DNA from: an uncultured Candidatus Melainabacteria bacterium
Lineage (GTDB): Bacteria > Cyanobacteriota > Vampirovibrionia > Gastranaerophilales > Gastranaerophilaceae
Length of the DNA: 64,000 nt
Reading direction: 5' to 3'
NCBI GenBank assembly: GCA_934717855.1
Contig: CAKUZI010000004.1
Location: 43,973 to 107,972, forward strand
Under the pieces are notes generated by a model. That model did no database searches and was not told the origin of the DNA. It saw only the letters and a program-made list of their open reading frames with translations. Of this stretch, positions 4,031 through 59,493 are shown piece by piece (the stretch's first letter is position 1; every line of letters starts with the position of its first letter). The position numbers and the translations under genes were made by a program.

Positions 4031-4717
4031 TTAATCTGTAAATCTAAACTTTATTAATGCAATTATAGCATGAATTCCATCACGCCACGTAATTTTTTTA
4101 CCCTCTGCGAATTCTCTTCCATAGTATGAAACAGGAAGTTCGTATAACCTTGCCCCGCGTTTTAGAACTTTCGCAGTGATTTCAGGTTCAAAATCAAATC
4201 TGTTTGATTTTATTTCAATCCCTTTTATGAAATCAGCTTTAAAGGCTTTGTAACAAGTTTCCATGTCGGTTAAAGTCGAACCGTATAGAATGTTCGTTAA
4301 CAAAGATAAAAATTTGTTTCCTAACAAATGGTGAAACATAAATGAACGAGACGGTTTCCCGCCTGACAATCTTGAACCGTAACACACATCTGCTTTTCCA
4401 TCCAAAATTAATTTGATAAGTGGTTCATAATCTACAGGGTCATATTCTAAATCGGCATCTTGGATGACAATAATATCTCCGGTTGCTTCTTTAAATCCTG
4501 TTCTCAATGCGGCCCCTTTGCCTTGATTAAATTCATGATACAAAACTTTATATGGATATTTAGAATATAAATCCCTAGTTCCGTCTGTTGAGTAGTCGTC
4601 AATTAAAATTATTTCTTTTTCTAATCCGCAAAATGAAGCTTGTTCAACTTTTTCTAAAATCTTATCCAATGTATTAACTTCATTGTATACAGGAATAAGT
4701 ATTGTAATTTTTTTCAT
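4031..4717 (-). CDS. family 2 glycosyltransferase (polyprenol-phosphate glycosyltransferase-like)
   Basis: Start taken at MKKITILIPVYNE, which has an AGGTGG RBS 8 nt upstream; the longer ORF-track start lacks an RBS. GT2 motifs ILIDDYSTDGT and DADLEYDP. Confidence 0.8.
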   Translation of the reverse strand: MKKITILIPVYNEVNTLDKILEKVEQASFCGLEKEIILIDDYSTDGTRDLYSKYPYKVLYHEFNQGKGAALRTGFKEATGDIIVIQDADLEYDPVDYEPLIKLILDGKADVCYGSRLSGGKPSRSFMFHHLLGNKFLSLLTNILYGSTLTDMETCYKAFKADFIKGIEIKSNRFDFEPEITAKVLKRGARLYELPVSYYGREFAEGKKITWRDGIHAIIALIKFRFTD

Positions 4718-11781: not shown

Positions 11782-11904
11782 TCCTCTCTCCAAGGGGAAG
11801 TTAGAGAATTTCATAAAAACAATTAATTAACCCCTCTCCCGAATTCGTAATACTCACCGTTGTTCGTAAACGACTTTGACCTCTTCCCTTGGAGAGGTGA
11901 AATC
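11782..11904. repeat. MITE-like palindromic element, copy 1 (about 123 bp), followed by a further partial terminal repeat to about 11950
   Basis: About 90% identical to 51626..51757. Terminal inverted motifs TCCTCTCTCCAAGGGGAAG / CTTCCCTTGGAGAGGTG. Internal AACCCCTCTCCCGAATTCG. Confidence 0.7.
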
Positions 11905-12250
11905 GGCCTAAAGTCCTCTCTCCAAGGGAGAGAGCTAGAGAGAGGGGTATAAAAAACCTAAAAACACAGATCGCGCAACTCAAAATTTCAATTTGACAAT
12001 TAATGATTTATTTTCATCTTCCGTGCGCGATGACAATATGTATTCTGGATGATTTATTAATCGCCGTTGGAATGGATTGGTTTAGCTTGACATTCTTTTA
12101 ATCTTATCCTACCCTAGTAGCATAGAGGAAATGGAGTGAACATCTTCAACTGCTGGCGCAGCCGTAATAGTCGGAATGCTCAAAACGAATTCGTTTACGC
12201 TCAGATTGAACGAAATTCTTTTAGAGCCTCTTGTAAAAGAGGACTTTTTT

Positions 12251-16265: not shown

Positions 16266-17261
16266 ATGAGTTTTCAAGAAAAATATTTGTCGATTTTTGA
16301 GGTTGTTAAAGATGATGTAGAAAAAGTTAAGTCGTCTTTATTTGATGGAATTGAACTTGACAATTCATTGAAGTTTAAACTTTTTGATATTCTGAACGCT
16401 CCGTCTAAACATATTCGCGCGGTTTTAACTTTTTTGTATCTCAAAACTGCAGGCATGAAAATAGATGAAAAACAAATTATTTACCAATCTGCAATTGAAT
16501 TGGTGCATAATGCGTCGCTTATTCATGATGATGTGATTGATGAAAGTTCTGTAAGGCGTTCAGTTCAGACACTGAATTCAAAGTTTGGTAACAAACTTGC
16601 GGTAATTACCGGAGATTATCTTCTTTCTGTTGCACTAAAAAAAATTAGAACTTTAGAAAATTCGAAAATTATTGATATATTTGCTCAAACACTTGATGAT
16701 ATGTGTCAAGGAGAGATTAAACAAGATTTAAGCAGGTTTAAAATTCCTACAATTGAAGAATATTTAAAAAAAACAGAACTTAAAACAGCAAAACTATTCG
16801 AAACAGCGCTTTGTGGAAGTTTTTTATTATATGGGGCGGGTGGTAGCCCCCACCTCGAAATCAGAGATTTCGGTCCTCCCGCAAGGGGTGGACATGAAGT
16901 TTCAGAAGAAGAAATAGCTGGAACTCCCCTCGCCCCAACGGGGAGAGGGTGTCACGAAGTGATGGGTGAGGGGTTCTATTGCTCAAATGTTCAAGATTTT
17001 GCGCGTAATTTTGGAATAGCTTTTCAAATTCGCGACGATTTGATTAATGCAAAAACTTCTCAAAATGATGTTAAAGATGGTATTTACACGGCTCCTGTTA
17101 TTTTTGCTGGTTCTGTTGATGATTATGAAAATGGTATTGAAAAAACTCAAATTTTGTTAAATAATTACATAGAGAGTGCGCAAAAAGAGATTGAAAAATT
17201 TGAAGAGAGTAAGTATAAAACAGCACTTACAAATCTTTTAGGACTTATTAAAAATGAATAA
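16266..17261 (+). CDS. trans-polyprenyl diphosphate synthase (IspB/IspA family) carrying an in-frame repeat-derived insertion
   Basis: 331 aa. First DDxxD motif LIHDDVIDE. Second Asp-rich region FQIRDDLIN. About 47 extra GC-rich residues (GAGGSPHLEIRDFGPPARGGHEVSEEEIAGTPLAPTGRGCHEVMGEGFY) sit between the helices that normally precede the second motif. Confidence 0.8.
   Translation: MSFQEKYLSIFEVVKDDVEKVKSSLFDGIELDNSLKFKLFDILNAPSKHIRAVLTFLYLKTAGMKIDEKQIIYQSAIELVHNASLIHDDVIDESSVRRSVQTLNSKFGNKLAVITGDYLLSVALKKIRTLENSKIIDIFAQTLDDMCQGEIKQDLSRFKIPTIEEYLKKTELKTAKLFETALCGSFLLYGAGGSPHLEIRDFGPPARGGHEVSEEEIAGTPLAPTGRGCHEVMGEGFYCSNVQDFARNFGIAFQIRDDLINAKTSQNDVKDGIYTAPVIFAGSVDDYENGIEKTQILLNNYIESAQKEIEKFEESKYKTALTNLLGLIKNE
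16836..16978. repeat. GC-rich palindromic repeat (RPE/REP-like) lying inside the polyprenyl synthase CDS
   Basis: Hairpins CCCCCACCTCGAAATCAGAGATTTCGGTCCTCCC and CCCCTCGCCCCAACGGGGAGAGGG. The first 60 nt are about 90% identical to intergenic 51798..51858. Confidence 0.7.
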
Positions 17262-17904
17262 AATTAAGGAATATATACAAAAAATAAAAGAAAATTATCT
17301 TAAGTTAAATCCAAATGTTAGAGAAGTCATAGAAACAATAGTTTTTGTGGTTGTAATGGTGATTATCATCAGGTTTTTTATTGGAGAAATTCGATGGATA
17401 CCGTCAGCGTCTATGCGCCCTACTCTAATAGAGGGTGATAGAATTGTTGTAGAACGCTTTTCTAGGTTTTATTCAAAACCAAAACGCGGAGATGTGATGG
17501 TGTTTTATCCTCCGTTTGAAAAGTTACCGAATACTCCTTGGCGAGTTTTTTCAAGATTAACAGGCTTTTTCTGCAAAGATGTTGCGTATATTAAGCGTGT
17601 AATCGGTACTCCTGGGGATAAATTTGAGATAAAAACGGATGAAGACGGTAAAAGTACTGTATACATTAATGATAAACCGTTGACAGAGCCATATATTGCG
17701 ACAAAATACTACGACAAACCTTGTACAGAAGAGATGATTTGTGGGCCTGTGATAATTCCAGAACATTCATATTTAATGATGGGCGACAATCGCGGAAATT
17801 CTTTTGACGGCCGTTGGTGGGGTTTTTTGCCCGAAGATAGATTTATCGGACGAGCAGTTGTTCTTTTCTGGCCGTTGAATAGGATTAAGTTGTTAGGTAA
17901 ATAG
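17254..17904 (+). CDS. lepB: signal peptidase I
   Basis: 216 aa. Catalytic Ser box SASMRPTL. GDRIVVERF. Conserved GDNRGNSFDGRWWGF. Confidence 0.85.
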   Translation: MNKIKEYIQKIKENYLKLNPNVREVIETIVFVVVMVIIIRFFIGEIRWIPSASMRPTLIEGDRIVVERFSRFYSKPKRGDVMVFYPPFEKLPNTPWRVFSRLTGFFCKDVAYIKRVIGTPGDKFEIKTDEDGKSTVYINDKPLTEPYIATKYYDKPCTEEMICGPVIIPEHSYLMMGDNRGNSFDGRWWGFLPEDRFIGRAVVLFWPLNRIKLLGK

Positions 17905-18110
17905 ATATTCAAATAGGGCAGATTTGAGTGAAAAGTGAGAAGTGAAACGTGAAAAAACCTTATCGTAAAACTATTACCCTTTCTCTTTGTGAGACAAAGG
18001 GAACCGCAGAGCTGTGGCGATGCGTGTGACCCTGTCCGCCTTGTGCCGAGGGAGCAGTTGTTCGTGAGCATCGGCGAACGTTACAAATTCGGGAGAGGGT
18101 TCCTGCTTTG
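17905..18110. repeat. composite GC-rich repeat region
   Basis: Contains the TGAAAAGTGAGAAGTGAAACGTGAAAA motif (inverse of 45420..45445), hairpin CCCTTTCTCTTTGTGAGACAAAGGG, and AATTCGGGAGAGGG (inverse of the MITE core at 11838). Local GC is far above the genome average. Confidence 0.5.
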
Positions 18111-18674: not shown

Positions 18675-19403
18675 ATGAAAAAAGAGGTAAAAAGAGTTGT
18701 CGGGGGGGGGGGCAATCGCGTTGGTAAATTAGCCTTTACGTTGGCAGAGGTTTTGTTAACTCTTGGTATTATTGGGGTTGTGGTGGTTTTGACAATTTTT
18801 GCGCTTGTTGGAAAATATTCTGATATGCAAAAGTCAGTTGCGTTAAAGAAAGCTTATACTAATTTAAGTCAAGCAATATTGATGTCTCAGCAAGAACATG
18901 GAGAACTTGCTGATTGGGATAGAGCTCCTTATCATCGTAAAGGAATGCTTGAATGGTCTAATGAGTATATTTTTAAATATATGAAAAAAGTTACTGCTTG
19001 TGAAGGTGGAAATAGTGCTATAAAATGTCCGACTGACGCTGATAGAATTTGCAATGCAGAAAATAAAAATTGCAATTCGGTTACTCTTAGGATGGCTGTA
19101 TATGTGCTTGCAGATGGCGAGAATATATATATTTTTAGTGGTGGAAATCCTGTTGCAGGAAAAAGTGATTTTTTACATATCTTAGTTGATACAAATGGGG
19201 TTAAAAAGCCGAATGTGTTTGGGAAAGATGTGTTTGTTTTTACTCTTTGGTTGAATGATAGAGCAGGAAAGCCTTTAAAAAGTTGGGGGTGTACATCGAG
19301 CAGAGATATGGCTCTTACATGTTGTAAAAATAGCTCAGAAAAATGCGCTGGTTTGTTAGAATTGGATAACTGGGAATTTAAAAAAGATTATCCTTGGCGA
19401 TAA
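18675..19403 (+). CDS. prepilin-type N-terminal cleavage/methylation domain protein (type IV pilin-like / pseudopilin) with a G11 tract in the leader-peptide codons
   Basis: 242 aa. Leader MKKEVKRVVGGGGNRVGKLA, then FTLAEVLLTLGIIGVVVV (Glu at +5). GGAGGG RBS. Homopolymer G11 at 18702..18712 encodes GGGG. Confidence 0.7.
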   Translation: MKKEVKRVVGGGGNRVGKLAFTLAEVLLTLGIIGVVVVLTIFALVGKYSDMQKSVALKKAYTNLSQAILMSQQEHGELADWDRAPYHRKGMLEWSNEYIFKYMKKVTACEGGNSAIKCPTDADRICNAENKNCNSVTLRMAVYVLADGENIYIFSGGNPVAGKSDFLHILVDTNGVKKPNVFGKDVFVFTLWLNDRAGKPLKSWGCTSSRDMALTCCKNSSEKCAGLLELDNWEFKKDYPWR

Positions 19404-34751: not shown

Positions 34752-37580
34752 ATGGCAAACGAAACAGGAACAAAAAAAGAGTACAAAGATACTTTAAATT
34801 TGCCTCAAACAACTCTTGCTATGAGAGCAAATGCAACAGTTAGAGAATTAGAAATTCAAAAATTTTGGGAAGAACACGATATTTATAACAAAATTATTAA
34901 CAATCGTGACAAAGCAAATAAATTTATTTTGCACGACGGCCCTCCATATTTGAGTTCTGAAAAAATTCACGTTGGTACTGCTTTGAACAAAATTCTTAAA
35001 GATATTTTGTTGAAATATAAAGCTCAAGCAGGGTTCTATACTCCGTATGTCCCGGGGTATGATGGGCATGGTTTGCCAATTGAAAATAAAGTTGTAAAAA
35101 ATATAAAAGGCGGAAGAAGCGCAGTAACTCCTTATGAGTTGCGTCAAAAATGTCGTGAATATGCTCATAACAGTTTAAAAGGTCAAGAAAGCGAGTTTAA
35201 ACGTCTTGGCGTTTTGGGTGACTGGGAAAACCCTTATTTGACTATTAAACCAGAATTCGAAGCTGAGCAAGTTAGAGTTTTTGGGGATATGTACAAAAAA
35301 GGTTATATTGAAAAAGGTTTGAAACCTGTTTATTGGTGCGCATCTTGCGAAACTGCTCTTGCAGAAGCAGAAGTTGAATACGCTGATGTTACATCAACTT
35401 CTATTTATGTAAGATTTAAGTTTGATGAAGAAAGTACTGAGAAAATTCAAAAGTTATTGAACAATTCACTACTCACTACTCACCATTCACCAGTATACGC
35501 CATCATTTGGACAACAACACCTTGGACAATTCCATCAAATATGGCAATCAGTATGCACCCTAAATTTGAATATACTTTCTTTGAATACAAAGGTGACGTT
35601 TATGTTGTTGCTCAAGGCTTGTTGGCAAGCTTCTTGGCTGACGTTGAATGGGATGAAAAAGATATTAAAGTCCTTGGTTCTTGTGTAGGACAAGACTTAG
35701 AACTTTTAACAACTCAACATCCGCTTGTAGATAGAAAATCTCCAATTATTTTAGGAGAACACGTAACGCTTGATGCAGGTACCGGTTCTGTTCATACAGC
35801 TCCAGGACACGGTCTTGAAGACTATGAAGTCGGTTGTAAATATGGTATTGAAGTATTTTCACCACTTGATAGTAAAGGTGTTTGGACTGATATCGTTAAA
35901 GATCCTGATTTGATAGGATTACCTTATTATAAAGGAAATTCTGTAGTAATCGAAAAACTTAAAAATTGTGGCGCTTTGTTAAAAGCTCAAGATATAAACC
36001 ACAGTTATCCGCACTGTTGGAGATGTAAAAATCCTGTAATTTACAGAGCTACACCTCAATGGTTTGTAAAAGTAGATAAATTCAGAGATCAAGCATTGGA
36101 AGCTATCAAGGGTGTAAAATGGATTCCTGCTGGCGGTGAAGCAAGAATTTCAAACATGGTTGCAGGTCGTACAGACTGGTGTATTTCCCGTCAAAGAGCT
36201 TGGGGCGTACCAATTCCGGTGTTCTACTGCGAAGATTGCGGAGAGGTTATTGTTACTGACGAAACAGTTGAAAATGTTGCAAAAATCTTTGAAAAAGAAA
36301 GTTCTGACGCTTGGGTAAAATATTCTGCAGAAGAATTGTTGCCTCAAGGATTTAAATGCCCTAAATGTGGTAAAACTCATTTCAAAAAAGAAAATGACAT
36401 TATGGATGTTTGGTTTGATTCAGGTGTAACATGGCGTGCAGTAGTTGAAAATCGTTCAGACGTTTTGGGGCATACTCCTGTTGAAATGTATTTGGAAGGT
36501 TCTGACCAACACAGAGGTTGGTTCCAATCATCACTTTTGACAAGTGTTGCTGTTCAAGGAAAAGCTCCTTACAAATCAGTTTTAACACATGGGTTTGTAT
36601 TTGGTGAAGATGGCCGAAAAATGTCAAAATCATTAGGCAACTACATCAGACCAGACGAAATTATTAAAACATATGGTGCAGATATTTTGAGATTGTGGGC
36701 TGCTTCTGTTGACTATAGAAACGATACAAAAATCGGTAACAACATTATTAAACAGCTTGCTGAAATCTTTAAGAAAACTAGAAATACTTCAAGATTTTTA
36801 CTTGGAAACTTGTTTGACTTTGATCCAAAAGTTGATTATGTACAGTATAATGATTTGAAAGCTATTGACAAATTTGCGTTACACAAGCTTAATCAGCTTA
36901 TTGCAAATGTAACTGAAGCTTTTGATAATTATGAATTCTATAAATATTTCCAACAGCTTCAAAATTTTGCAGCAGTTGATTTGAGCTCATTCTATCTTGA
37001 TATTGTAAAAGACAGATTGTACACGGCAGGTAAAAAATCGCTTTCACGTAGAGCTTGTCAAACTGTTTTGTATGAAACATTGCAAACTCTTGTAAGAATG
37101 CTTGTTCCTGTAATGCCTCACCAAGCTGAAGATATTTGGGCTAGCGTTCCGGAATGTCAAAAAGACGGATTGGAAAGTATTTTGCTCTCTGATTGGGTTA
37201 AAGTTAATCCAGAATGGAACAACGAACAATTAGAAAACGATTTCACGCAAATATTGAAAACTCGTGAAGTTGTCACTCGTGCAATTGAACCTCTTAGAGC
37301 TGAAAAACAAGTCGGAAGTTCTTTAGAAGTTGCTGTGTTTGTAAAATCTGACAACGCAGAAATTTTGAAAGCTAACGAAGATGAGTTATGTAATATATTT
37401 ATTACATCACAAGCACATGTAGTTGATGAAAAACCTGCAAATGTCTTGAATGAACATTCCGAAGAGGGCTATACTGTTTGGGTTACAAAAGCAGAGGGTG
37501 AAAAATGTGCTCGTTGCTGGAAATACAGAAAACTAAATGCCGACGGAATTTGTGAAGAATGTGCAGAGGCTATTAAATAG
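34752..37580 (+). CDS. ileS: isoleucine--tRNA ligase
   Basis: 942 aa. TLNLPQTTLAMRAN. HDGPPYLSSEKIHVGTALNKILKD (HIGH-type). KMSKSLGN. C-terminal Zn finger CARCWKYRK..CEECAEAIK. Confidence 0.95.
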   Translation: MANETGTKKEYKDTLNLPQTTLAMRANATVRELEIQKFWEEHDIYNKIINNRDKANKFILHDGPPYLSSEKIHVGTALNKILKDILLKYKAQAGFYTPYVPGYDGHGLPIENKVVKNIKGGRSAVTPYELRQKCREYAHNSLKGQESEFKRLGVLGDWENPYLTIKPEFEAEQVRVFGDMYKKGYIEKGLKPVYWCASCETALAEAEVEYADVTSTSIYVRFKFDEESTEKIQKLLNNSLLTTHHSPVYAIIWTTTPWTIPSNMAISMHPKFEYTFFEYKGDVYVVAQGLLASFLADVEWDEKDIKVLGSCVGQDLELLTTQHPLVDRKSPIILGEHVTLDAGTGSVHTAPGHGLEDYEVGCKYGIEVFSPLDSKGVWTDIVKDPDLIGLPYYKGNSVVIEKLKNCGALLKAQDINHSYPHCWRCKNPVIYRATPQWFVKVDKFRDQALEAIKGVKWIPAGGEARISNMVAGRTDWCISRQRAWGVPIPVFYCEDCGEVIVTDETVENVAKIFEKESSDAWVKYSAEELLPQGFKCPKCGKTHFKKENDIMDVWFDSGVTWRAVVENRSDVLGHTPVEMYLEGSDQHRGWFQSSLLTSVAVQGKAPYKSVLTHGFVFGEDGRKMSKSLGNYIRPDEIIKTYGADILRLWAASVDYRNDTKIGNNIIKQLAEIFKKTRNTSRFLLGNLFDFDPKVDYVQYNDLKAIDKFALHKLNQLIANVTEAFDNYEFYKYFQQLQNFAAVDLSSFYLDIVKDRLYTAGKKSLSRRACQTVLYETLQTLVRMLVPVMPHQAEDIWASVPECQKDGLESILLSDWVKVNPEWNNEQLENDFTQILKTREVVTRAIEPLRAEKQVGSSLEVAVFVKSDNAEILKANEDELCNIFITSQAHVVDEKPANVLNEHSEEGYTVWVTKAEGEKCARCWKYRKLNADGICEECAEAIK
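35461..35493. repeat. repeat-family fragment lying in frame inside ileS
   Basis: ACAATTCACTACTCACTACTCACCATTCACC matches the intergenic CACAATTCACTACTCAC / CACTATTCACCATTCACTAT family at 40860..40896 and 41846..41862. It encodes the low-complexity peptide NSLLTTHHSP. Confidence 0.45.
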
Positions 37581-38235: not shown

Positions 38236-39609
38236 ATGGGAATGGCAGCGGGACAAGCTAGACTATTAAGCATAACAGCAAGATTGACCAATAATGAAAA
38301 TTCTGGTCAAAGTATTTCCTATTCAAAACAACGTTTAGCTGATCAAACACAACAAATTACAAATGAATATAATGAAGCTCTTAATACTACTAAATTAACG
38401 GTATTAACAGGATTTAACGGAGCTGATGCAACATATACTGATATTTCGTATGACACAATGACAAATAAACAAATGGCTGCGAATACAAAACAATATGTTG
38501 TTACAGATACCAAAGGCAGAATTTTGGTTACAGAAGATATTGCAAATGCTTACAAACAATCCGCAGGAAATTATAACCAATTTTTAGCAAAATTATCAGA
38601 TAAAGAGGGGGGGCCTTATACTCAATCTGATTTGAAAGTTCAAGATAACGGAACCTATAACAATGCTGATTTAATAGGTGCTGCACAAAAAATCCATGAA
38701 GCTTGGGATAAATACTTTGCGTCAGTTGGTATTGAATGCAACGATGACGAACATAAAGGGATTTATAATGATGGTAAATATAGATTCCAATGGAATAACG
38801 TGTTGGATACAAATGACAAAGGAGAATATTTAGACAAAGACGGTAAAGTTATTACTGCAGATGAAGCTAAAACAAAAGGCTATTCATCAGTTGGTAGTGG
38901 TTATGCAAGTTGGGCTGTTTTAGATAAAAATGGAGAACCTACCGGCGAATATACTCCAATCAACTATGAAGGTACAACTGAAGAATCTCGTGAATTATTT
39001 GATTATGCGATGGCTATAACAGAATCATTCATGAGAACAGAAAAAAACTTAAAAGCAGAAGGCAAATCAGCAGAGATGAATGAGGTATTTGATCCAGAGA
39101 AATACACATTAAATCTTGATTCTAGCAACAAAGCTGATTTGGCTTACTACAAAAATATCTTCTCAAAAATGCAATCAAGCGGATATTTTACTTACACAAA
39201 TACTCCTGCAAAAGCTGTTAACGATCCTGAACACTATAAAATAGCTTCTATTGGAACTGGTACAGCTGGCAATGTTCAAAAATCTCCATTGAAAGATAAT
39301 ACTGTTTTTGAAGCAGCTTTGAGAGACGGCTCATTAAGGTTGGAATATTATTCAACAACTTCAAAATCATTTAAGACAACTACAATTTCAGAAGACAATT
39401 GCATTCAAGAAGTTGCAGATGAAAGAGCTATTGCAAGAGCTGAATCAAAATATAATCAAGATATGGCAGATCTAGAAAATCAAGATAAGAAGCTTGATTT
39501 GGAACTAAAAAAACTTGATACAGAACACTCTGCTTTGCAAACAGAATATGATTCAGTTAAAAACGTAGTTGACAAAAACGTTGAAAGTTCATTCAAAACA
39601 TTTGGATAA
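38236..39609 (+). CDS. paralog B of the family with conserved N/C termini and a variable core; contains a G7 tract
   Basis: Start at MGMAAGQARLLSITARLTN, with an AAAGGAAAA RBS. C-terminus ...DSVKNVVDKNVESSFKTFG is identical in its last 11 residues to paralog A. G7 tract at 38606..38612. Confidence 0.6.
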   Translation: MGMAAGQARLLSITARLTNNENSGQSISYSKQRLADQTQQITNEYNEALNTTKLTVLTGFNGADATYTDISYDTMTNKQMAANTKQYVVTDTKGRILVTEDIANAYKQSAGNYNQFLAKLSDKEGGPYTQSDLKVQDNGTYNNADLIGAAQKIHEAWDKYFASVGIECNDDEHKGIYNDGKYRFQWNNVLDTNDKGEYLDKDGKVITADEAKTKGYSSVGSGYASWAVLDKNGEPTGEYTPINYEGTTEESRELFDYAMAITESFMRTEKNLKAEGKSAEMNEVFDPEKYTLNLDSSNKADLAYYKNIFSKMQSSGYFTYTNTPAKAVNDPEHYKIASIGTGTAGNVQKSPLKDNTVFEAALRDGSLRLEYYSTTSKSFKTTTISEDNCIQEVADERAIARAESKYNQDMADLENQDKKLDLELKKLDTEHSALQTEYDSVKNVVDKNVESSFKTFG

Positions 39610-39619
39610 GGAGTTGTGA

Positions 39620-40162
39620 TAACCCCTCTCTGAAATTTGTAAATTCGCCTGTCTATTAAATGATAAAGACAGTCTCATTAACAAATTTCTTCTCTCCCCA
39701 AAGGGCGAGATTAGAGAACATTTAACCTTATTTCTTCTAATACATTTTCTATATTATTGTTTATTTTGTTATTATAAACTCTAATAATTCTATAGCCTTG
39801 TTCTTTGAGAAATTTATCTCTTATTTCATCGTGCTGAGTTTGTTTTTCTTCAAGATGCCCTGAACCATCTAGTTCAATAATTAAATTCTTTTCTTTGCAA
39901 ACAAAATCTACAATATAATTTCCTATTGGTGCTTGTCGACGAAACTTAAGCCCCATAAATCTTCTAGCTCTTAAATTAAACCAAAGTTTTTGTTCAAATA
40001 TTGTCATATCTGAACGTAGTTCTTTTGCTTTTTGTAATGAAAAATTTGTATAATTGTGATTAGCTTTCTGCATAAATAAAGTATAACATAATCTCGCCCT
40101 TTGGGGAGAGAAGAAATTTCTTAGCGAATTTGAATGAGCTTAGGAATTTTAGAGAGGGGTTA
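39620..40162. mobile_element. small cassette carrying a DUF559 endonuclease gene, bounded by nested inverted repeats
   Basis: Outer IR TAACCCCTCTCTGAAATT (39620..39637) vs its reverse complement at 40145..40162, 17/18 matching. Inner 32-bp IR AAATTTCTTCTCTCCCCAAAGGGCGAGATTAG (39683..39714) vs 40089..40120, perfect. The cassette fills the convergent spacer between the paralog B stop and the rdgB stop. Confidence 0.6.
39711..40073 (-). CDS. DUF559 (Vsr-like / PD-(D/E)xK) endonuclease domain protein
   Basis: 120 aa. IFEQKLWFNLRARRFMGLKFRRQAPIGNYIVDFVCKEKNLIIELDGSGH...RVY is typical of DUF559. Confidence 0.7.
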   Translation of the reverse strand: MQKANHNYTNFSLQKAKELRSDMTIFEQKLWFNLRARRFMGLKFRRQAPIGNYIVDFVCKEKNLIIELDGSGHLEEKQTQHDEIRDKFLKEQGYRIIRVYNNKINNNIENVLEEIRLNVL

Positions 40163-40759: not shown

Positions 40760-40782
40760 TGGAACTCCTTTGTTTTTTATAG

Positions 40783-40896
40783 TGAATAGTGAGTAGTGAA
40801 TAGTGCTTATAGCTCGCTTTGCTCGAAAAATAAATTTGGCGTAAGCCCGTAAAGGTCTACTCACTATTTCACAATTCACCATTCACTATAAAAACT
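40783..40896. repeat. palindromic 'AGTGAATAG-family' intergenic element (rdgB-uppS spacer)
   Basis: AGTGAATAGTGAGTAGTGAATAGTG...TTGGCGTAAGCCCGTAAAGGTCTACTCACTATTTCACAATTCACCATTCACTAT. Arms are mutually inverted. Matches 46851..46960. Confidence 0.7.
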
Positions 40897-41776: not shown

Positions 41777-41991
41777 TTTTAATATTTTACATACAAAAAA
41801 ATTTTGGCGTGCTAATTATTGTAATGGTCTAGTCACTATTCACAATTCACTACTCACTTCCCCAAAATATGAACTTTGCTTAACCTCTCTTTTCAAATTA
41901 TTTACAAAAAAACTTGTTCATGTGATAATAATTGTTGAAAGCTAAAAATATAATAGCGAATGTACACAATATAAAAAAGGAAAAAACAAAA

Positions 41992-44629: not shown

Positions 44630-45355
44630 ATGATTATGAGATTAACAAATGAGAGAGCTGGATTTACACTCGCTGAGGTTTTGATTACTTTGGGTATTAT
44701 TGGGGTAGTTGCAGCAATGACTATGCCAACATTGATGAACCAAACAAACGGTGCACAGTACAAAGCAGCTTACAAAAAAGCGTTGTCTGCAATTTCTCAA
44801 GGTGTAACTTTGAACGTTGCTCTAGATGACGCTAGTTTTGCAGATGCTGTTGCTGGTGATGCTGGTAAAACTGACAAACCAACATCAGGTGATTCTGTAG
44901 CAAGTATTTTGGGGGCAAGAATGAACGTTGTTAAAGCTGCAAGTACCGCAGCAGAGGGTGGATATTCTTCTTTCCCTGGAACTTTAGGCACTGTAACAAC
45001 ATGTAAAGAAGCAGGTAAAAAACCAGGTGATGACGGTTGTACACAACAAACCACAAATGTAGTTCCTGATACATACTTATTCTTTAATGATGGCTCAATG
45101 TTTGCCTATAAAGCAGTTGATGCTGTAGCTTGTTCTAAAGATGGTAATGTTGATGGTGGTAAAGTTTGTGTCGGTGTAATCGATGTAAACGGTGCAAAAG
45201 GTCCAAACAAAGTTGTACAATGTGATAATGGAACTGGGACTGATTCTAAACCGTGTACAGCCGGTAATCCTACAGATATATACCCTGTTGAGTTTTATGA
45301 CCAAACAATTTTGCCAGCTTCAGCTGCTGCAAGAGCTGTATTGTATGGCAAGTAG
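44630..45355 (+). CDS. prepilin-type N-terminal cleavage/methylation domain protein (pseudopilin)
   Basis: Leader MIMRLTNERAG, then FTLAEVLITLGIIGVVAAMTMPTLM. GAAAGGTGG RBS. Gly/Thr-rich, Cys-containing C-terminal domain. Confidence 0.7.
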   Translation: MIMRLTNERAGFTLAEVLITLGIIGVVAAMTMPTLMNQTNGAQYKAAYKKALSAISQGVTLNVALDDASFADAVAGDAGKTDKPTSGDSVASILGARMNVVKAASTAAEGGYSSFPGTLGTVTTCKEAGKKPGDDGCTQQTTNVVPDTYLFFNDGSMFAYKAVDAVACSKDGNVDGGKVCVGVIDVNGAKGPNKVVQCDNGTGTDSKPCTAGNPTDIYPVEFYDQTILPASAAARAVLYGK

Positions 45356-45686: not shown

Positions 45687-46847
45687 ATGAAGAAAAATAT
45701 TATAATATTTTTGTCGGTAATTATTGCGGCAATTTTGATTAGATATGGTTTTTCAATGTTCGGAACAATTATGCAAGGAAAGGCGATGAAAAACAAGCCT
45801 GCTCCGTCTGTTACGGTTCAAGAAGTTGAAACAAAAAACGTTATTAGAAGTTTTGAAGCTCCGGGGCGTGTAGTTTCTAAATATAGAGTTGACGTAATGG
45901 CACGTATTTCCGGATATCTTTTGAAAAGTTATTTTAAAGAGGGCGATTATGTTAAGGCCGGTCAAGTTTTATTCCAAATTGAGCCGAATGAATATTCAAA
46001 TGCTTCTAGCGTAGCATCTGCAAATGTTAAAAATTTAAAAGCTCAACTCGTATATGCAGAAAAACAATTGGCACGTGCTTCTGAACTTGTGAAAAAGGAT
46101 TATATTGCAAAAGCACAATATGACCAAATTTTGTCTCAAAGAGATGCTTTGAGAGCTCAATTGGCTTCTGCGCAGGCTTCTTTAAATGATGCGAATAGAA
46201 ATCTTGGTTATACTAGAGTAAAATCACCGGTAAATGGTAAAGTTGGTATAATTAATGTAACAGTCGGAAACTATGTTTCTCCAACTTCAGGAGCTTTAAC
46301 GACAATTAACAGTACAAATCCGATTTATGTTACTTTCCCTATTGAATCTGCTGATTTTCAGGCACTTGCTGTTGCTGACAAATCAAATAACAAAAACAGA
46401 AAAGTTGAACTTATAATGAACGGTGGAGTTAAGTATGCAAAACTTGGTGTTCAAGATTTTCAAGACAACAAAGTTGACCAAACTACCGGCACAGTAACAA
46501 TGAGAGCTACTTTTGATAATCCGAATAATGAACTTATTCATGGGGAATTCGTAACAGTAAAATTGTATTCAAATAATCCTGTAGAAGTTCCTGTTGCACC
46601 GATTACAGCTGTTTTGGAAAACCAAGCAGGAAAATATGTTTATAAATTAGATGAAAAAAATCTTCCTCAGCTTGTTTATGTAAAAACAGGGGAGCAAAAT
46701 GGTGATAATTGGATAATCAAAGAGGGATTGCAAAAGGGAGACAGAATTGTTACAGAGGGGCTTCAAAAAGTAATTCCTGGAAAACCTGTGACAATCGTGA
46801 CTGCAGACGAGATGAAGAAAATTAAAAATGGAAAAGAAAGTGAGTAG
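45687..46847 (+). CDS. RND efflux periplasmic adaptor (membrane fusion protein, AcrA/HlyD-like)
   Basis: 386 aa. N-terminal anchor, coiled-coil hairpin (QLVYAEKQLARASELVKKDYIAKAQYDQ), beta-barrel and MP domains. Confidence 0.85.
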   Translation: MKKNIIIFLSVIIAAILIRYGFSMFGTIMQGKAMKNKPAPSVTVQEVETKNVIRSFEAPGRVVSKYRVDVMARISGYLLKSYFKEGDYVKAGQVLFQIEPNEYSNASSVASANVKNLKAQLVYAEKQLARASELVKKDYIAKAQYDQILSQRDALRAQLASAQASLNDANRNLGYTRVKSPVNGKVGIINVTVGNYVSPTSGALTTINSTNPIYVTFPIESADFQALAVADKSNNKNRKVELIMNGGVKYAKLGVQDFQDNKVDQTTGTVTMRATFDNPNNELIHGEFVTVKLYSNNPVEVPVAPITAVLENQAGKYVYKLDEKNLPQLVYVKTGEQNGDNWIIKEGLQKGDRIVTEGLQKVIPGKPVTIVTADEMKKIKNGKESE

Positions 46848-46850
46848 AGG

Positions 46851-46960
46851 CTAGTGAGTAGTGAATGGTACTTATCGTTCGCTTCGCTCAAAAAATATTT
46901 GGCGTAAGCCCATAATGGCCTACTCACTATTCACCATTCACTATTCACTTCTTAAAACCA
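46851..46960. repeat. palindromic 'AGTGAATAG-family' element in the acrA-acrB spacer
   Basis: GTGAGTAGTGAATGGTACTTATCG...TTGGCGTAAGCCCATAATGGCCTACTCACTATTCACCATTCACTATTCAC. About 85% identical to 40783..40896. Confidence 0.7.
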
Positions 46961-51625: not shown

Positions 51626-51757
51626 TCCTCTCTTCTAGGGGAAGTTAGAAAAATGGATTTATTTTATAAAAACAATTAATTAACCCCTCTCCCGAATTCG
51701 TAATACTCACTGTTGTTCGCAAACGACTTCGACCTCTTCCCTCGGAGAGGTGAAATC
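51626..51757. repeat. MITE-like palindromic element, copy 2 (about 132 bp)
   Basis: Aligns with 11782..11904, with a 9-nt indel and a few substitutions. Confidence 0.7.
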
Positions 51758-51797: not shown

Positions 51798-51858
51798 TCC
51801 CCCACCTCGAAATCAAAGATTTCGGTCCTCCCTCAAGTGGAGGACATGGAGTAACAAA
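51798..51858. repeat. intergenic copy of the GC-rich palindromic repeat also found inside the ispB-like CDS
   Basis: CCCCCACCTCGAAATCAAAGATTTCGGTCCTCCCTCAAGTGGAGGACATGGAG vs 16847..16907. Confidence 0.65.
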
Positions 51859-58662: not shown

Positions 58663-59493
58663 TTGCAAAATACAATATTGTATATTATGATATACAATAT
58701 GATAAATAAATTGATTAATAATGATTTTGTTTTGACGGAAGATATTGTACGGGGAACTTACTGCAATAATTTCCGTAAATCAGGTTTTACTTTAGCAGAG
58801 GTGTTAATTACTTTAGGTATAATAGGAGTTGTTGCTTCTTTGGTTTTACCTACGTTAATTGAAAAATTTAAGGACAAAGTTTATATTACACAAACTAAAA
58901 AGACTTATTCTACTGTACAGACAGTATTCAATCAATGGATGTATGACAAAGGTTGTCTTGATTATGCCTGCCTTTTTGAGCAATCTAAAACTCAGGCAGA
59001 ATTGTCTAGCGAATTTTTATCATATTTTAAGAGCGTAAAAACTTGTAAACTTTCTGTATCTGGTTGTTTAGCTGATAATATAAAATTACCTAAAGCAACT
59101 AATAATGGTCATGGAAAATTAGATGTAATGCATGGAAAAAATTGGTATAGTGCAATTTTAGCTGATGGTTCAGTAGTCGGAATATTCCCTTATGTTAATG
59201 GGGATGAAAATTGTGGACGAATTTTTGTTGACAGGCTAAGAGATGAAAATGGTAATTATATTTCTGATGGAAAGGGTGGGTACAAAACAAAAGAGACATA
59301 TTCAAAACAGTGTGGAGTTTTTTTGATTGATTCAAATGGTTTGAAAGGACCAAATCAGCTTGGCGCGGATGTATATACTTTTATTATTAATAATAAAAGT
59401 ATATTTAATTGGCATACAAAAATTGATACAGTATTGGTAGATGAAAAACTTGATTATATAAACTACAATCTAGATAATATAAAAGGTAATTAA
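58663..59493 (+). CDS. prepilin-type N-terminal cleavage/methylation domain protein (pseudopilin)
   Basis: ...FRKSG then FTLAEVLITLGIIGVVASLVLPTLI. The start among several upstream Met is uncertain. The 12-bp palindrome TACAATATTGTA sits at the start region. Confidence 0.65.
   Translation: MQNTILYIMIYNMINKLINNDFVLTEDIVRGTYCNNFRKSGFTLAEVLITLGIIGVVASLVLPTLIEKFKDKVYITQTKKTYSTVQTVFNQWMYDKGCLDYACLFEQSKTQAELSSEFLSYFKSVKTCKLSVSGCLADNIKLPKATNNGHGKLDVMHGKNWYSAILADGSVVGIFPYVNGDENCGRIFVDRLRDENGNYISDGKGGYKTKETYSKQCGVFLIDSNGLKGPNQLGADVYTFIINNKSIFNWHTKIDTVLVDEKLDYINYNLDNIKGN

Follow-up and report, generated by a model that had tools for sequence, protein, structure and literature searches.

A Vsr-like DUF559 nuclease gene between inverted BoxC/PIT/TM_ECO-type modules in a gut melainabacterial genome: a candidate nuclease-repeat system

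Positions 39620-40162 of the analysed stretch of DNA (64,000 nucleotides of contig CAKUZI010000004.1, assembly GCA_934717855.1; called the window here) hold a 543-bp unit in which nested inverted repeats surround one intact gene of the DUF559 family. The window comes from a human-gut Gastranaerophilales (Melainabacteria) genome and has a G+C content of 30-39%. To judge by their motif, the repeat modules that flank the gene are AT-drifted members of the BoxC/PIT/TM_ECO family, a membership that the preliminary description of the unit, made from the sequence alone, had missed. The cross-phylum pairing of such modules with DUF559 genes suggests that the DUF559 nuclease is the missing partner of this orphan repeat family. 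We lean towards the reading that the unit is the gene-bearing copy of a nuclease-plus-repeat system, the nuclease of which would act on its own modules in a manner resembling REP/RAYT systems or homing, with another enzyme fold.

BoxC/PIT/TM_ECO repeats have been catalogued since the 1990s, with descriptions attributed to Bachellier (1999), Hoyne (2000) and Holder et al. (2015). We know of no function, origin or mobilising activity for them. DUF559 is, to our knowledge, a very large family without a known function, and it includes YcjD of Escherichia coli.

The unit sits in the convergent spacer between p448 (448 residues, + strand, no Pfam family) and rdgB (Ham1 family, E 6e-60, - strand). 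It had been said to fill this spacer exactly, which is true of one end, where its final TTA (40160-40162) is the rdgB stop codon, but not of the other, which lies 10 nt past the p448 stop codon (39607-39609). The outer inverted repeat (39620-39642 / 40140-40162) extends over 23 nt at 87% identity and includes the previously reported 18-mer TAACCCCTCTCTGAAATT, which indeed matches at 17 of 18 positions. The inner inverted repeat (39679-39713 / 40089-40123) spans 35 nt with one mismatch; its perfect stretch (39683-39713 / 40089-40119) exists as claimed but measures 31 nt, not 32. Each inner arm is a G/C-rich hairpin, TCTCTCCCC-AAA-GGGCGAGA. One of the two overlaps the DUF559 stop codon, and a TGn-extended -10-like element is found directly downstream of the other. 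The repeats greatly exceed chance expectation: with up to three mismatches, the 20-mer hairpin TCTCTCCCCAAAGGGCGAGA occurs twice in the window (0.00 expected), and AACCCCTCTC occurs eight times with up to one mismatch (1.37 expected; none of 100 shuffles reached eight). The features of the unit are listed below; loci compared with the window are designated by L and a number.

39620..39638, + strand: left arm of the outer terminal repeat (TAACCCCTCTCTGAAATTT), corresponding to the third block (CCCTCACCC) of the BoxC/TM module and ending in the palindrome AAATTT (39633-39638); this terminus is also present in L012, L015, L104-L110 and L111.
39639..39682, + strand: left spacer 'Ls', with its own small hairpin CTGTCT...AGACAG, equivalent to an expanded loop 2 of the TM module.
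39683..39713, + strand: left arm of the inner repeat, comprising the AAATTT palindrome (39683-39688) and the G/C-rich hairpin TCTCTCCCCAAAGGGCGAGA (39691-39710); the complement of the DUF559 stop codon forms the last 3 nt of the arm.
39711..40073, - strand: DUF559/YcjD-family gene, 120 residues, predicted Vsr-like (EDxHD-type) PD-(D/E)xK nuclease; the only real open reading frame (ORF) inside the unit, as described before.
40080..40088, - strand: extended -10-like element (TGTTATACT), 6 nt upstream of the ATG, read from sequence.
40089..40119, + strand: right arm of the inner repeat, comprising the hairpin TCTCGCCCTTTGGGGAGAGA (40092-40111) and the AAATTT palindrome (40114-40119).
40120..40144, + strand: right spacer 'Rs' (CTTAGCGAATTTGAATGAGCTTAGG), read from sequence.
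40145..40162, + strand: right arm of the outer terminal repeat (AATTTTAGAGAGGGGTTA), its terminal TTA being the rdgB stop codon.

The left end of the unit has a DNA fold z-score of -5.4. The rdgB stop codon likewise abuts the terminal GGGG(T) in L111 and L104-L110. The position of the -10-like element implies a putatively leaderless mRNA, and the 5' hairpin occupies the place expected for a -35 element or an operator. A consensus promoter scan did not call the element at 40080..40088; the spacing from TATAAT or TATACT to the start codon is the same in L012, L015, L019 and L111. It is extremely unlikely that the unit is a housekeeping gene with a shared bidirectional terminator or regulatory palindrome, unrelated to repeats elsewhere. 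Its place in a convergent spacer, the hairpins at the gene ends and its occurrence at the same site in several related species would fit such a gene, but no intrinsic-terminator-like site was found at the unit, no T-run follows either hairpin, and PIT elements showed neither promoter nor terminator activity (PMC4666352). Furthermore, the same sequence flanks DUF559 in unrelated phyla and is dispersed without the gene, and sister strains differ in its presence or absence. The preliminary description had set its proposal against a unit kept at one site in all relatives with mere terminator palindromes; gene-less sister alleles and other copies were found instead, and no terminator. A known RNA family at the unit ends was considered and rejected: Rfam whalefall-1 scored 19.2 bits at 39621-39712 (- strand) and 16.4 bits at 40090-40161 (+ strand), below its gathering score of 37, and the matches were not reproduced in related loci. 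Whalefall-1, a metagenomic 'RNA' motif, may be a related repeat.

The assignment of the modules comes from the literature, where BoxC, the PIT element and TM_ECO (an 'intrastrand triplex motif') share the pattern CCCTCNCCC-loop-GGGNGAGGG-N3-GGGNGAGGG (PMC4666352), to which the flanks of the unit correspond in their hairpin part. The window hairpin TCTCGCCC-TTTG-GGGAGAGA corresponds to CCCTCGCCCC-TTT-GGGGAGAGGG of E. coli, and the hairpin TCTCGCCCTTTGGGGAGAGA is one single-base indel apart from CCCTCGCCCCTTTGGGGAGAGGG, the commonest E. coli type ('A mm'). The third block reads AGAGAGGGG in the window and is about 25-45 nt away, compared with 3 nt in the BoxC/PIT/TM_ECO pattern CCCTCNCCC-N3-6-GGGNGAGGG-N3-GGGNGAGGG. 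L111 (an allelic cassette), L092, L067 and L074 have the canonical third-block spacing. Holder et al. (2015) counted 23 TM_ECO copies in E. coli K-12, with inverted pairs at five sites, and 3,610 copies in 262 proteobacterial genomes (PMC4666352). They described TM_ECO loci as hypervariable and attributed the instability to triplex DNA, never found a transposase, integrase or other mobility activity near the repeats, and mentioned neither DUF559 nor any endonuclease (PMC4666352).

The pairing of modules and gene was surveyed at 80 DUF559 loci from species-representative genomes, out of at least 597 matches. They include Gallionella, Pseudomonas, Neisseria, Enterobacter, rhizobia, Nitrospirota, Chloroflexia, Patescibacteria, Planctomycetota and others; gene starts are approximate, and the module detectors are our own regular expressions. 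The median score of flanking inverted repeats is 12.5 near DUF559 and 9.0 in shifted controls, and 43% of the loci exceed the 99th percentile of the controls (1% expected). A perfect G/C-rich hairpin lies within 200 nt of the gene at 76 of the 80 loci, and the density of such hairpins is 3.7 per kb near DUF559 versus 0.55 per kb elsewhere. Three-block modules occur at 1.03 per kb near DUF559, 0.19 per kb in other intergenic regions and 0.03 per kb in coding regions. The hairpin arms are nearly always CTCTCCC, CTCCCCC or CCCTCCC, and the module consensus is CCCTCTCC-loop-GGAGAGGG-TTA-GGGTGAGGG. Hairpin and gene are closely apposed: 21 of 30 downstream hairpins start between -40 and +30 nt from the stop codon, inverted TM doublets at two Enterobacter loci start on the DUF559 stop codon or directly at it, and in the Enterobacter locus L100 the stop codon is formed by the 'TAA' of TM loop 2. 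Annotated homologues often have odd N- or C-terminal extensions such as 'PLS...GRGEG', which we read as translated flanking hairpins. The G.A/T.C stem mismatch of E. coli and the window was considered as a universal mark for a mismatch nuclease and was rejected, being present in only about 14% of the flanking hairpins.

The DUF559 protein of the window matches the Pfam family (PF04480) over residues 14-117 of 120 (E 1e-38) and the PDB entry 3HRL (E 8.5e-21). Its match to the NCBIfam profile PRK09767 (E 1.3e-26) reaches 92.9 bits, below the equivalog cut-off of 218, and the protein is therefore not a YcjD orthologue. Foldseek comparisons of an AlphaFold2 model (pLDDT 88, pTM 0.81) retrieved a DUF559 protein from Neisseria (3HRL; E 6.6e-8, TM-score 0.88), the catalytic domain of I-Bth0305I (E 1.3e-4, TM-score 0.73) and Vsr (1CW0; E 9e-3). 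Across 31 homologues, residues D56, E67, D69, H73 and D82 do not vary and E27 hardly does, and the spacing of these residues fits the EDxHD description (PMC3239194). Purifying selection acts on the gene, with dN/dS ratios of 0.10-0.25 in five comparisons. Taken together, the selection, the retained catalytic residues and the predicted fold, similar to those of I-Bth0305I and Vsr, make the gene look functional and the protein look active. DUF559 is almost confined to chromosomes, with matches in 30 of 72,556 plasmid records, and phage records gave no match to the family at E 1e-10; a plasmid or phage vehicle for the gene was rejected on its near absence from both record sets. Membership of a defence system was likewise discarded, as PADLOC and PHROGs gave weak nuclease-domain matches only.

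The gene and its modules are also found together inside other genes. In four other Gastranaerophilales/Melainabacteria genomes, the DUF559 domain is embedded in frame within a larger ORF, as follows.

L092 1829-4459: cassette in priA, between the 3'-binding domain and the helicase Walker A motif of PriA.
L048 1733-3190: cassette in prmA, within the methyltransferase domain of PrmA.
L035 1859-3100: cassette in a GHMP-kinase gene.
L071 1424-2827: cassette in a radical-SAM gene, at the C-terminus.

The embedded nuclease domain is about 110 residues long. The insertion in L092 is bounded exactly by CCCCTCACCCC...GGGTGAGGGG, and its hairpins are translated as the linkers 'PSPQPSPARGEG' and 'PSPLAGEGRVRG'; the host ORFs read through the hairpins as PSP...GEG linkers. 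The gene and modules can therefore reach new sites as one unit. The earlier view of the unit as a discrete cassette is borne out by the recurrence of its layout at other loci and in other species.

The exact DUF559 protein of the window occurs on 19 metagenomic contigs. In all ten places listed of these contigs, mostly from human-gut samples, the order is rdgB - DUF559 - p448 in one orientation at 98-99.7% DNA identity, and the neighbours there include no recombinase gene. The p448 protein has a homologue at 87% identity in Candidatus Melainabacteria bacterium MEL.A1. The anatomy of the unit, from the outer motif through the spacer, hairpin, -10 element and gene to the hairpin over the stop codon, is kept in DUF559 homologues at 81%, 68% and 65% identity. 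The first (L011-L014) is flanked by fusA and p448, the rdgB-uppS-fusA block being inverted at its locus. The second (L019-L021) has the same two neighbours as in the window, with the opposite orientation and differently spelled hairpins. The third (L015-L018, pig gut) is at another locus, where AAGCCCCTCTCT / AGAGAGGGGCTT still form the outer motif and TCTCTCCCC-loop-GGGGAGAGA the inner one, and a TATAAT box precedes the start codon by 6 nt. Identities between the window and L012 are 81% for DUF559, 77% for p448, 79% for RdgB, 96% for UppS and 95% for IleS, which suggests a probable long vertical residence of the gene near rdgB/fusA with local rearrangements.

Further small insertions were observed around these cassettes. 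A palindromic insert of about 40 nt (ACTCTGCCGAACAAAACAATTGATAATTGTTTTGAGAGA...) splits the 3' hairpin in L011, L013 and L014 and is missing from L012, which has the same DUF559 protein (P0005); hairpins are thus themselves insertion targets, in three of the four contigs that carry P0005. Another small element of about 110 nt (GTCTTGRATTTSCTCCACGCTYACAGAGTT...) lies just 3' of the cassette in two species (L019 about 4380-4500, L091 about 1290-1400). The neighbouring p448 gene (window 38263-39609; homologues P0121-P0240) is highly polymorphic, with more than 100 distinct variants at 84-95% identity in gut metagenomes, and may encode a surface or antigenic protein. The flanking FusA, UppS and IleS are 93-99% identical even to those of the more distant relatives L011-L012 and L019-L021.

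Comparison of the site across strains, as the preliminary description had advised, revealed full units, gene-less alleles and inversion there. One p448 variant, an identical 449-residue protein on every contig, is followed by alleles that differ between strains. L106, L107 and L110 have a full unit of 546 nt, as in the window. A stub of 85 nt in L104 consists of the outer repeats and the left spacer, and L108 holds the same type of stub with its 44-nt interior inverted. Stubs of 64-68 nt in L103, L105 and L109 consist of the outer repeats and the right spacer, an allele type also found in L121, L153 and L162. A scan of metagenomes adds a 59-nt stub and one contig with a single 18-nt outer arm only. 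In the alleles that were aligned, each junction coincides with one of four (G)AAATTT(C) palindromes of the full unit, at the outer-left, inner-left, inner-right or outer-right position. What is left of the full unit differs from one kind of stub to another, so that the stubs are most simply its deletion derivatives; the comparison gives direct evidence for an origin of the gene-less elements at the site, which resemble miniature inverted-repeat transposable elements (MITEs), in the gene-bearing form by internal deletion. The two repeat arms evolve in concert, since a compensatory change in L105 affects both outer arms (AACCACTCTCT / AGAGTGGGGTT) and a loop change between the window and L106 is mirrored in both inner arms. 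In L111, with a p448 that is 90% identical, the spacer holds another cassette type in the opposite orientation, with a 48-nt perfect inverted repeat of the canonical form AACCCCTCACCC-N14-CCCTCTCCCC-GTT-GGGGCGAGG.

Between the window and L012, the core of hairpin, gene and hairpin is flipped relative to the two spacers. Judged from the aligned alleles, both nested repeat pairs have apparently mediated inversions in evolution (L104 versus L108; window versus L012). The suggestion that the unit is an invertible cassette holds to this extent, but a programmed switch, in which the nested inverted repeats would serve phase variation, is very unlikely. It would agree with the perfect 31 nt of the inner repeat, with the reversed gene in L019 and L111, the flipped core in L012 and the inverted interior in L108, and with the enrichment of 'DUF559 domain-containing protein' (odds ratio 14.3) among predicted programmed-inversion targets, where it is listed without comment (PMC9881135). 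Set against it are the single orientation in all ten places listed of the 19 contigs and the lack of a nearby recombinase or invertase gene. In addition, the -10 element is within the invertible segment, so that flipping would leave expression unchanged, and the inverted forms are fixed differences between lineages, one of them a different cassette type. The programmed switch and the plain terminator are both poorly supported readings.

Gene-less modules are also dispersed in the window and in related genomes, in agreement with the gene-less MITE-like derivatives proposed earlier. Those in the window are the following.

11828..11949, + strand: gene-less version of the unit layout, TAACCCCTCTCC - spacer - hairpin - 16 nt - hairpin - AGAGAGAGGGGTA (DNA fold z = -4.25).
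16847..16975, + strand: two inverted TM-type modules in frame within a polyprenyl-synthase-like coding sequence (16266-17261) (DNA fold z = -3.7).
51682..51757, + strand: solo module (outer motif, spacer and hairpin), 95% identical to 11808-11904.
51799..51852, + strand: solo module of a second subfamily (CCCCCACC - small hairpin - GTCCTCCC...GGAGGAC), with the layout of the 3' flank of the cassette within the coding sequence of L048.

The terminal motif claimed for these local elements is shared with them, and at 11828 and 51682 the likeness spans about 25 nt and the whole layout; the motif at 18085-18105 is, however, a one-base-shorter variant (AACCCTCTCCC), and that at 16966-16975 has one mismatch (AACCCCTCAC). 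A 120-residue ORF beside the 18085 motif (17709-18071, - strand) was considered as a second DUF559 gene and dismissed as spurious: it does not encode a DUF559 protein and lies across a gene on the + strand. Sequences 51799-51852 and 16847-16900 both belong to the second subfamily. The modules at 16847-16975 flank about 30 nt of native-looking coding sequence (SEEEIA), as is the case with Rickettsia palindromic elements. An empty/filled pair was sought for this element in a polyprenyl synthase beside the pig-gut cassette; that gene proved to be a distant paralogue of the one in the window, and the comparison showed only two modules flanking native-looking codons. The wider search for the repeat terminus that had been proposed was made on metagenome contigs, where the 18-nt terminus matched 82 stretches. 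Low-GC gut Melainabacteria contigs carry the gene-less module (terminus, spacer, AAATTT and hairpin) at at least three further locus types, and one 137-kb contig has three copies within mosaics of other small repeats. The solo modules in L144, L167, L142, L131, L177, L127 and L186 form mosaics with other repeats, among them GTCCTCAGTATGACRTTTCACGTCATTGCGAGCG and the poly-C tract TTGCCCCCCCCCCGA, which recall BIME and NIME mosaic elements.

Gene-less doublets with the ends of the unit (window 11828-11949, the inverted TM pairs of E. coli, L104) might be the empty alleles of a classical free-standing homing endonuclease gene. DUF559 would then cut them, repair would copy the gene in, and the repeats would be the homing site and the homology arms. 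The fold and the catalytic motif speak for homing, as they match those of the EDxHD enzyme I-Bth0305I, a dimer that cuts a pseudopalindromic site (PMC3239194), and so do the two cassette types (window and L111) at exactly one site in related strains. We nevertheless regard homing in this strict sense as distinctly unlikely. The three kinds of gene-less alleles keep different parts of the unit, which argues for deletion instead of an ancestral empty site, and no recent gain was seen among the alleles compared. Complete hairpins stand on both sides of the gene, so that insertion leaves the presumed target intact, and the DUF559 protein does not have the NUMOD/HTH DNA-binding region of I-Bth0305I.

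The nuclease-plus-repeat reading can also be compared with E. coli, in which ycjD (K-12 1,351,407-1,351,760) is the DUF559 gene whose profile PRK09767 matched the window protein. TM_ECO no. 9 starts 167 nt past the ycjD stop codon, a degenerate hairpin lies over the stop itself, and the repeat is on one side of the gene only. About 70 nt of the ycjD 3' end (GGAGACGGTGCTGGAGAATATTC...) are duplicated between the stop codon and TM_ECO no. 9 (L102 2790-2990, K-12). Of 5,426 complete E. coli genomes, 3,378 carry the gene, in at most two places per genome; extra DUF559 copies, sought with an Enterobacter gene, were not found in E. coli. It is in the fabI-sapF spacer of phylogroups A, B1 and C, and eefRABCD is there instead elsewhere (PMC12817139). 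Strain counts of TM_ECO, taken from the supplement of Holder et al. (PMC4666352), are as follows.

Phylogroups A, B1 and C, ycjD present: K-12 21-24, BL21 20, HS 19, 55989/IAI1/O104:H4 29, E24377A 27, W 30, APEC O78 23, UMNK88 13.
Phylogroup B2, ycjD absent: 1-2 each in CFT073, UTI89, IHE3034, UM146, S88, APEC O1, JJ1886 and LF82.
Other groups: O157:H7 11, IAI39 6, 042 12-13, UMN026 15.

The phylogroups of the individual strains are those to which we take them to belong (UMNK88 presumably to A). This cross-reading of two papers gives a hint that the TM_ECO count tracks ycjD, which would fit maintenance of the repeats by the nuclease. Outside E. coli, Salmonella is reported to lack TM_ECO, and some Enterobacter strains have more than 300 TM copies and others fewer than 30.

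Based on these comparisons, a mechanism for the nuclease-plus-repeat system can be proposed. A small, predicted Vsr-like endonuclease (DUF559/YcjD) is encoded between two inverted BoxC/PIT/TM-type modules, each composed of a terminal C-rich block, a spacer and a G/C-rich hairpin. The nuclease may recognise the modules as a palindrome or as an extruded or single-stranded hairpin, and may nick or cut there or close by. New sites would then receive copies of modules, occasionally with the gene along, through break repair, template switching or gene conversion, and failed or aberrant events would produce deletions and inversions. The 5' hairpin overlaps the putative promoter, and the same binding could therefore also repress the DUF559 gene. 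In the lineage of the window, the gene-bearing copy appears to have long resided in the p448/rdgB spacer and to have been repeatedly flipped, swapped for another cassette type or cut to a stub. The proposal of a tiny autonomous element is partly retained in this mechanism: gene-less derivatives exist, but the unit is an old p448/rdgB-fusA resident and not a recent arrival, and a role of DUF559 as a transposase is not supported. Of the marks of a DDE-type insertion sequence and its MITEs, terminal repeats are present, and neither a duplication nor a DDE transposase is.

Several observations weigh against the proposed mechanism. That DUF559 recognises and cuts the flanking modules, and thereby drives their copying and instability, is a step that we infer from sequences. 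The gene looks vertically inherited near rdgB/fusA, with a divergence similar to that of its fast-evolving neighbours, and every same-site variant is best read as loss, not gain. The alleles examined at the p448/rdgB site include no fully empty site, and the elements of the window, L104, L111 and L092 have no consistent target-site duplication, a mark that the preliminary description had advised seeking at the unit ends and that is not visible there. The deletion and inversion junctions could come from microhomology or replication slippage, without a dedicated enzyme. The 80 surveyed loci are those closest to the query and represent one DUF559 subfamily (short, stand-alone); hairpins are on both sides of the gene in only 33 of them. 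Two opposite configurations of the modules are found, the third block being nearer to the gene in one and farther from it in the other; this fits a build-up of modules around a static gene as well as a mobile cassette. The E. coli correlation spans few independent lineages, and O157:H7 keeps 11 TM_ECO copies, though its assignment to ST11/phylogroup E (PMC12817139) predicts no ycjD.

An alternative is that DUF559 is a passenger or helper. The modules would spread without it, by replication slippage, an unknown transposase acting in trans or recombination, and DUF559 would be a host structure-specific repair nuclease that trims the hairpin or triplex and is co-located through module build-up or selection. 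The two module configurations, often one-sided, agree with such a role, as do the module clusters at several loci, the persistence of TM_ECO copies in E. coli lineages without ycjD and the single-copy, nearly exclusively chromosomal gene; Vsr, a relative of DUF559, is a repair enzyme (PMC3384342). Against a passenger stand the hairpins that physically overlap the ORF end and the promoter, the insertion of gene and modules as one unit within coding genes, and a module sequence conserved from E. coli to Melainabacteria only alongside this gene family; no other candidate enzyme was ever found beside the repeats (PMC4666352). We regard a passenger role as unlikely, if worth serious consideration, and retain the nuclease-plus-repeat reading.

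A search of the literature on DUF559, YcjD and COG2852 found no link to repeats, BoxC/PIT/TM, triplex motifs or mobility; most subscription journals were outside the search, and a prior description is possible. The link between DUF559 and the repeat family thus appears to be unreported, in keeping with the novelty anticipated for it. The physical and evolutionary association gives a testable role to both DUF559 and BoxC/PIT/TM_ECO. It raises the questions of whether YcjD cuts BoxC and whether the loss of ycjD is behind the one or two copies in B2 E. coli. A nuclease beside the repeats offers an alternative to triplex DNA as the cause of TM-locus hypervariability. Nuclease cassettes have also come to light that lie complete and in frame within priA and other genes. 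If the proposal is true, it describes a second, mechanistically different nuclease-repeat partnership after REP/RAYT. We think it quite possible, if somewhat short of probable, that Vsr-like nucleases of the DUF559/YcjD type are the enzymes so far missing for BoxC/PIT/TM_ECO, by which these repeats are created, maintained or moved. Nuclease and repeat together would then make up a class of their own across phyla, parallel to REP/RAYT and built on a PD-(D/E)xK fold, which could insert whole and in frame into essential genes and could explain the 'genomic instability' ascribed to triplex.

Two other repeats of the window were observed apart from the unit. Heptamer-like repeats (TCACTAT / TCACCAT, complement TAGTGAA) at 40780-40889, 41833-41853, 46845-46944 and 35473-35493 are adjacent to a conserved block of 40-50 nt, recur upstream of rdgB and in three other places, and recall cyanobacterial short tandem heptamer repeats. 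A segment that encodes a prepilin-type N-terminus (FTLAEVLITLGIIGVV) is present in three copies (18735-18796, 44663-44724 and 58786-58847). Melainabacteria have many pilin-like genes, of which such a segment is typical.

Among known systems, REP/RAYT is similar in having a single-copy chromosomal nuclease gene flanked by inverted short G/C-rich palindromic repeats, which are also dispersed without the gene as singlets and inverted doublets (REPINs). Inheritance is largely vertical in both, neither shows a target-site duplication, and the abundance of the repeat appears to track the gene, as with the TM_ECO counts and ycjD in E. coli. In contrast, DUF559 is a Vsr-like PD-(D/E)xK (EDxHD) protein and not an HUH/Y1 transposase (IS200/IS605 TnpA-like), the repeat is the three-block BoxC/TM motif and not a GTAG-tagged REP, and the whole DUF559 cassette is found in frame within genes. 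With its Vsr-like fold, the system may therefore work like REP/RAYT but is no member of it.

The modules resemble BoxC/PIT/TM_ECO in the order of a C-rich arm, loop, G-rich arm, N3 and second G-rich block, most clearly in the hairpin part, and share with it the inverted doublets and hypervariable loci prone to rearrangement. Published accounts treat the repeats as orphan and non-coding, with neither an associated gene nor a function in mobility, whereas those of the unit enclose a gene for a nuclease. The genome of the window is AT-rich; loop 2 is enlarged there to about 25-45 nt, compared with 3 nt, and drift has changed the third block to AACCCCTCTCT. I-Bth0305I resembles the DUF559 protein in its catalytic fold, as predicted by the model, and in matching conserved acidic and histidine residues. 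It differs by an N-terminal NUMOD/HTH DNA-binding region and a home in a group I intron; DUF559 proteins of about 110-120 residues stand alone, flanked by repeats, and have no intron or intein association. Rickettsia palindromic elements and other MITEs are likewise short palindromic modules in ORFs that keep the frame, as at window 16847-16975, and are translated as short linker peptides. The Rickettsia elements carry no gene, whereas here whole nuclease cassettes are also present in frame within priA, prmA and other genes.

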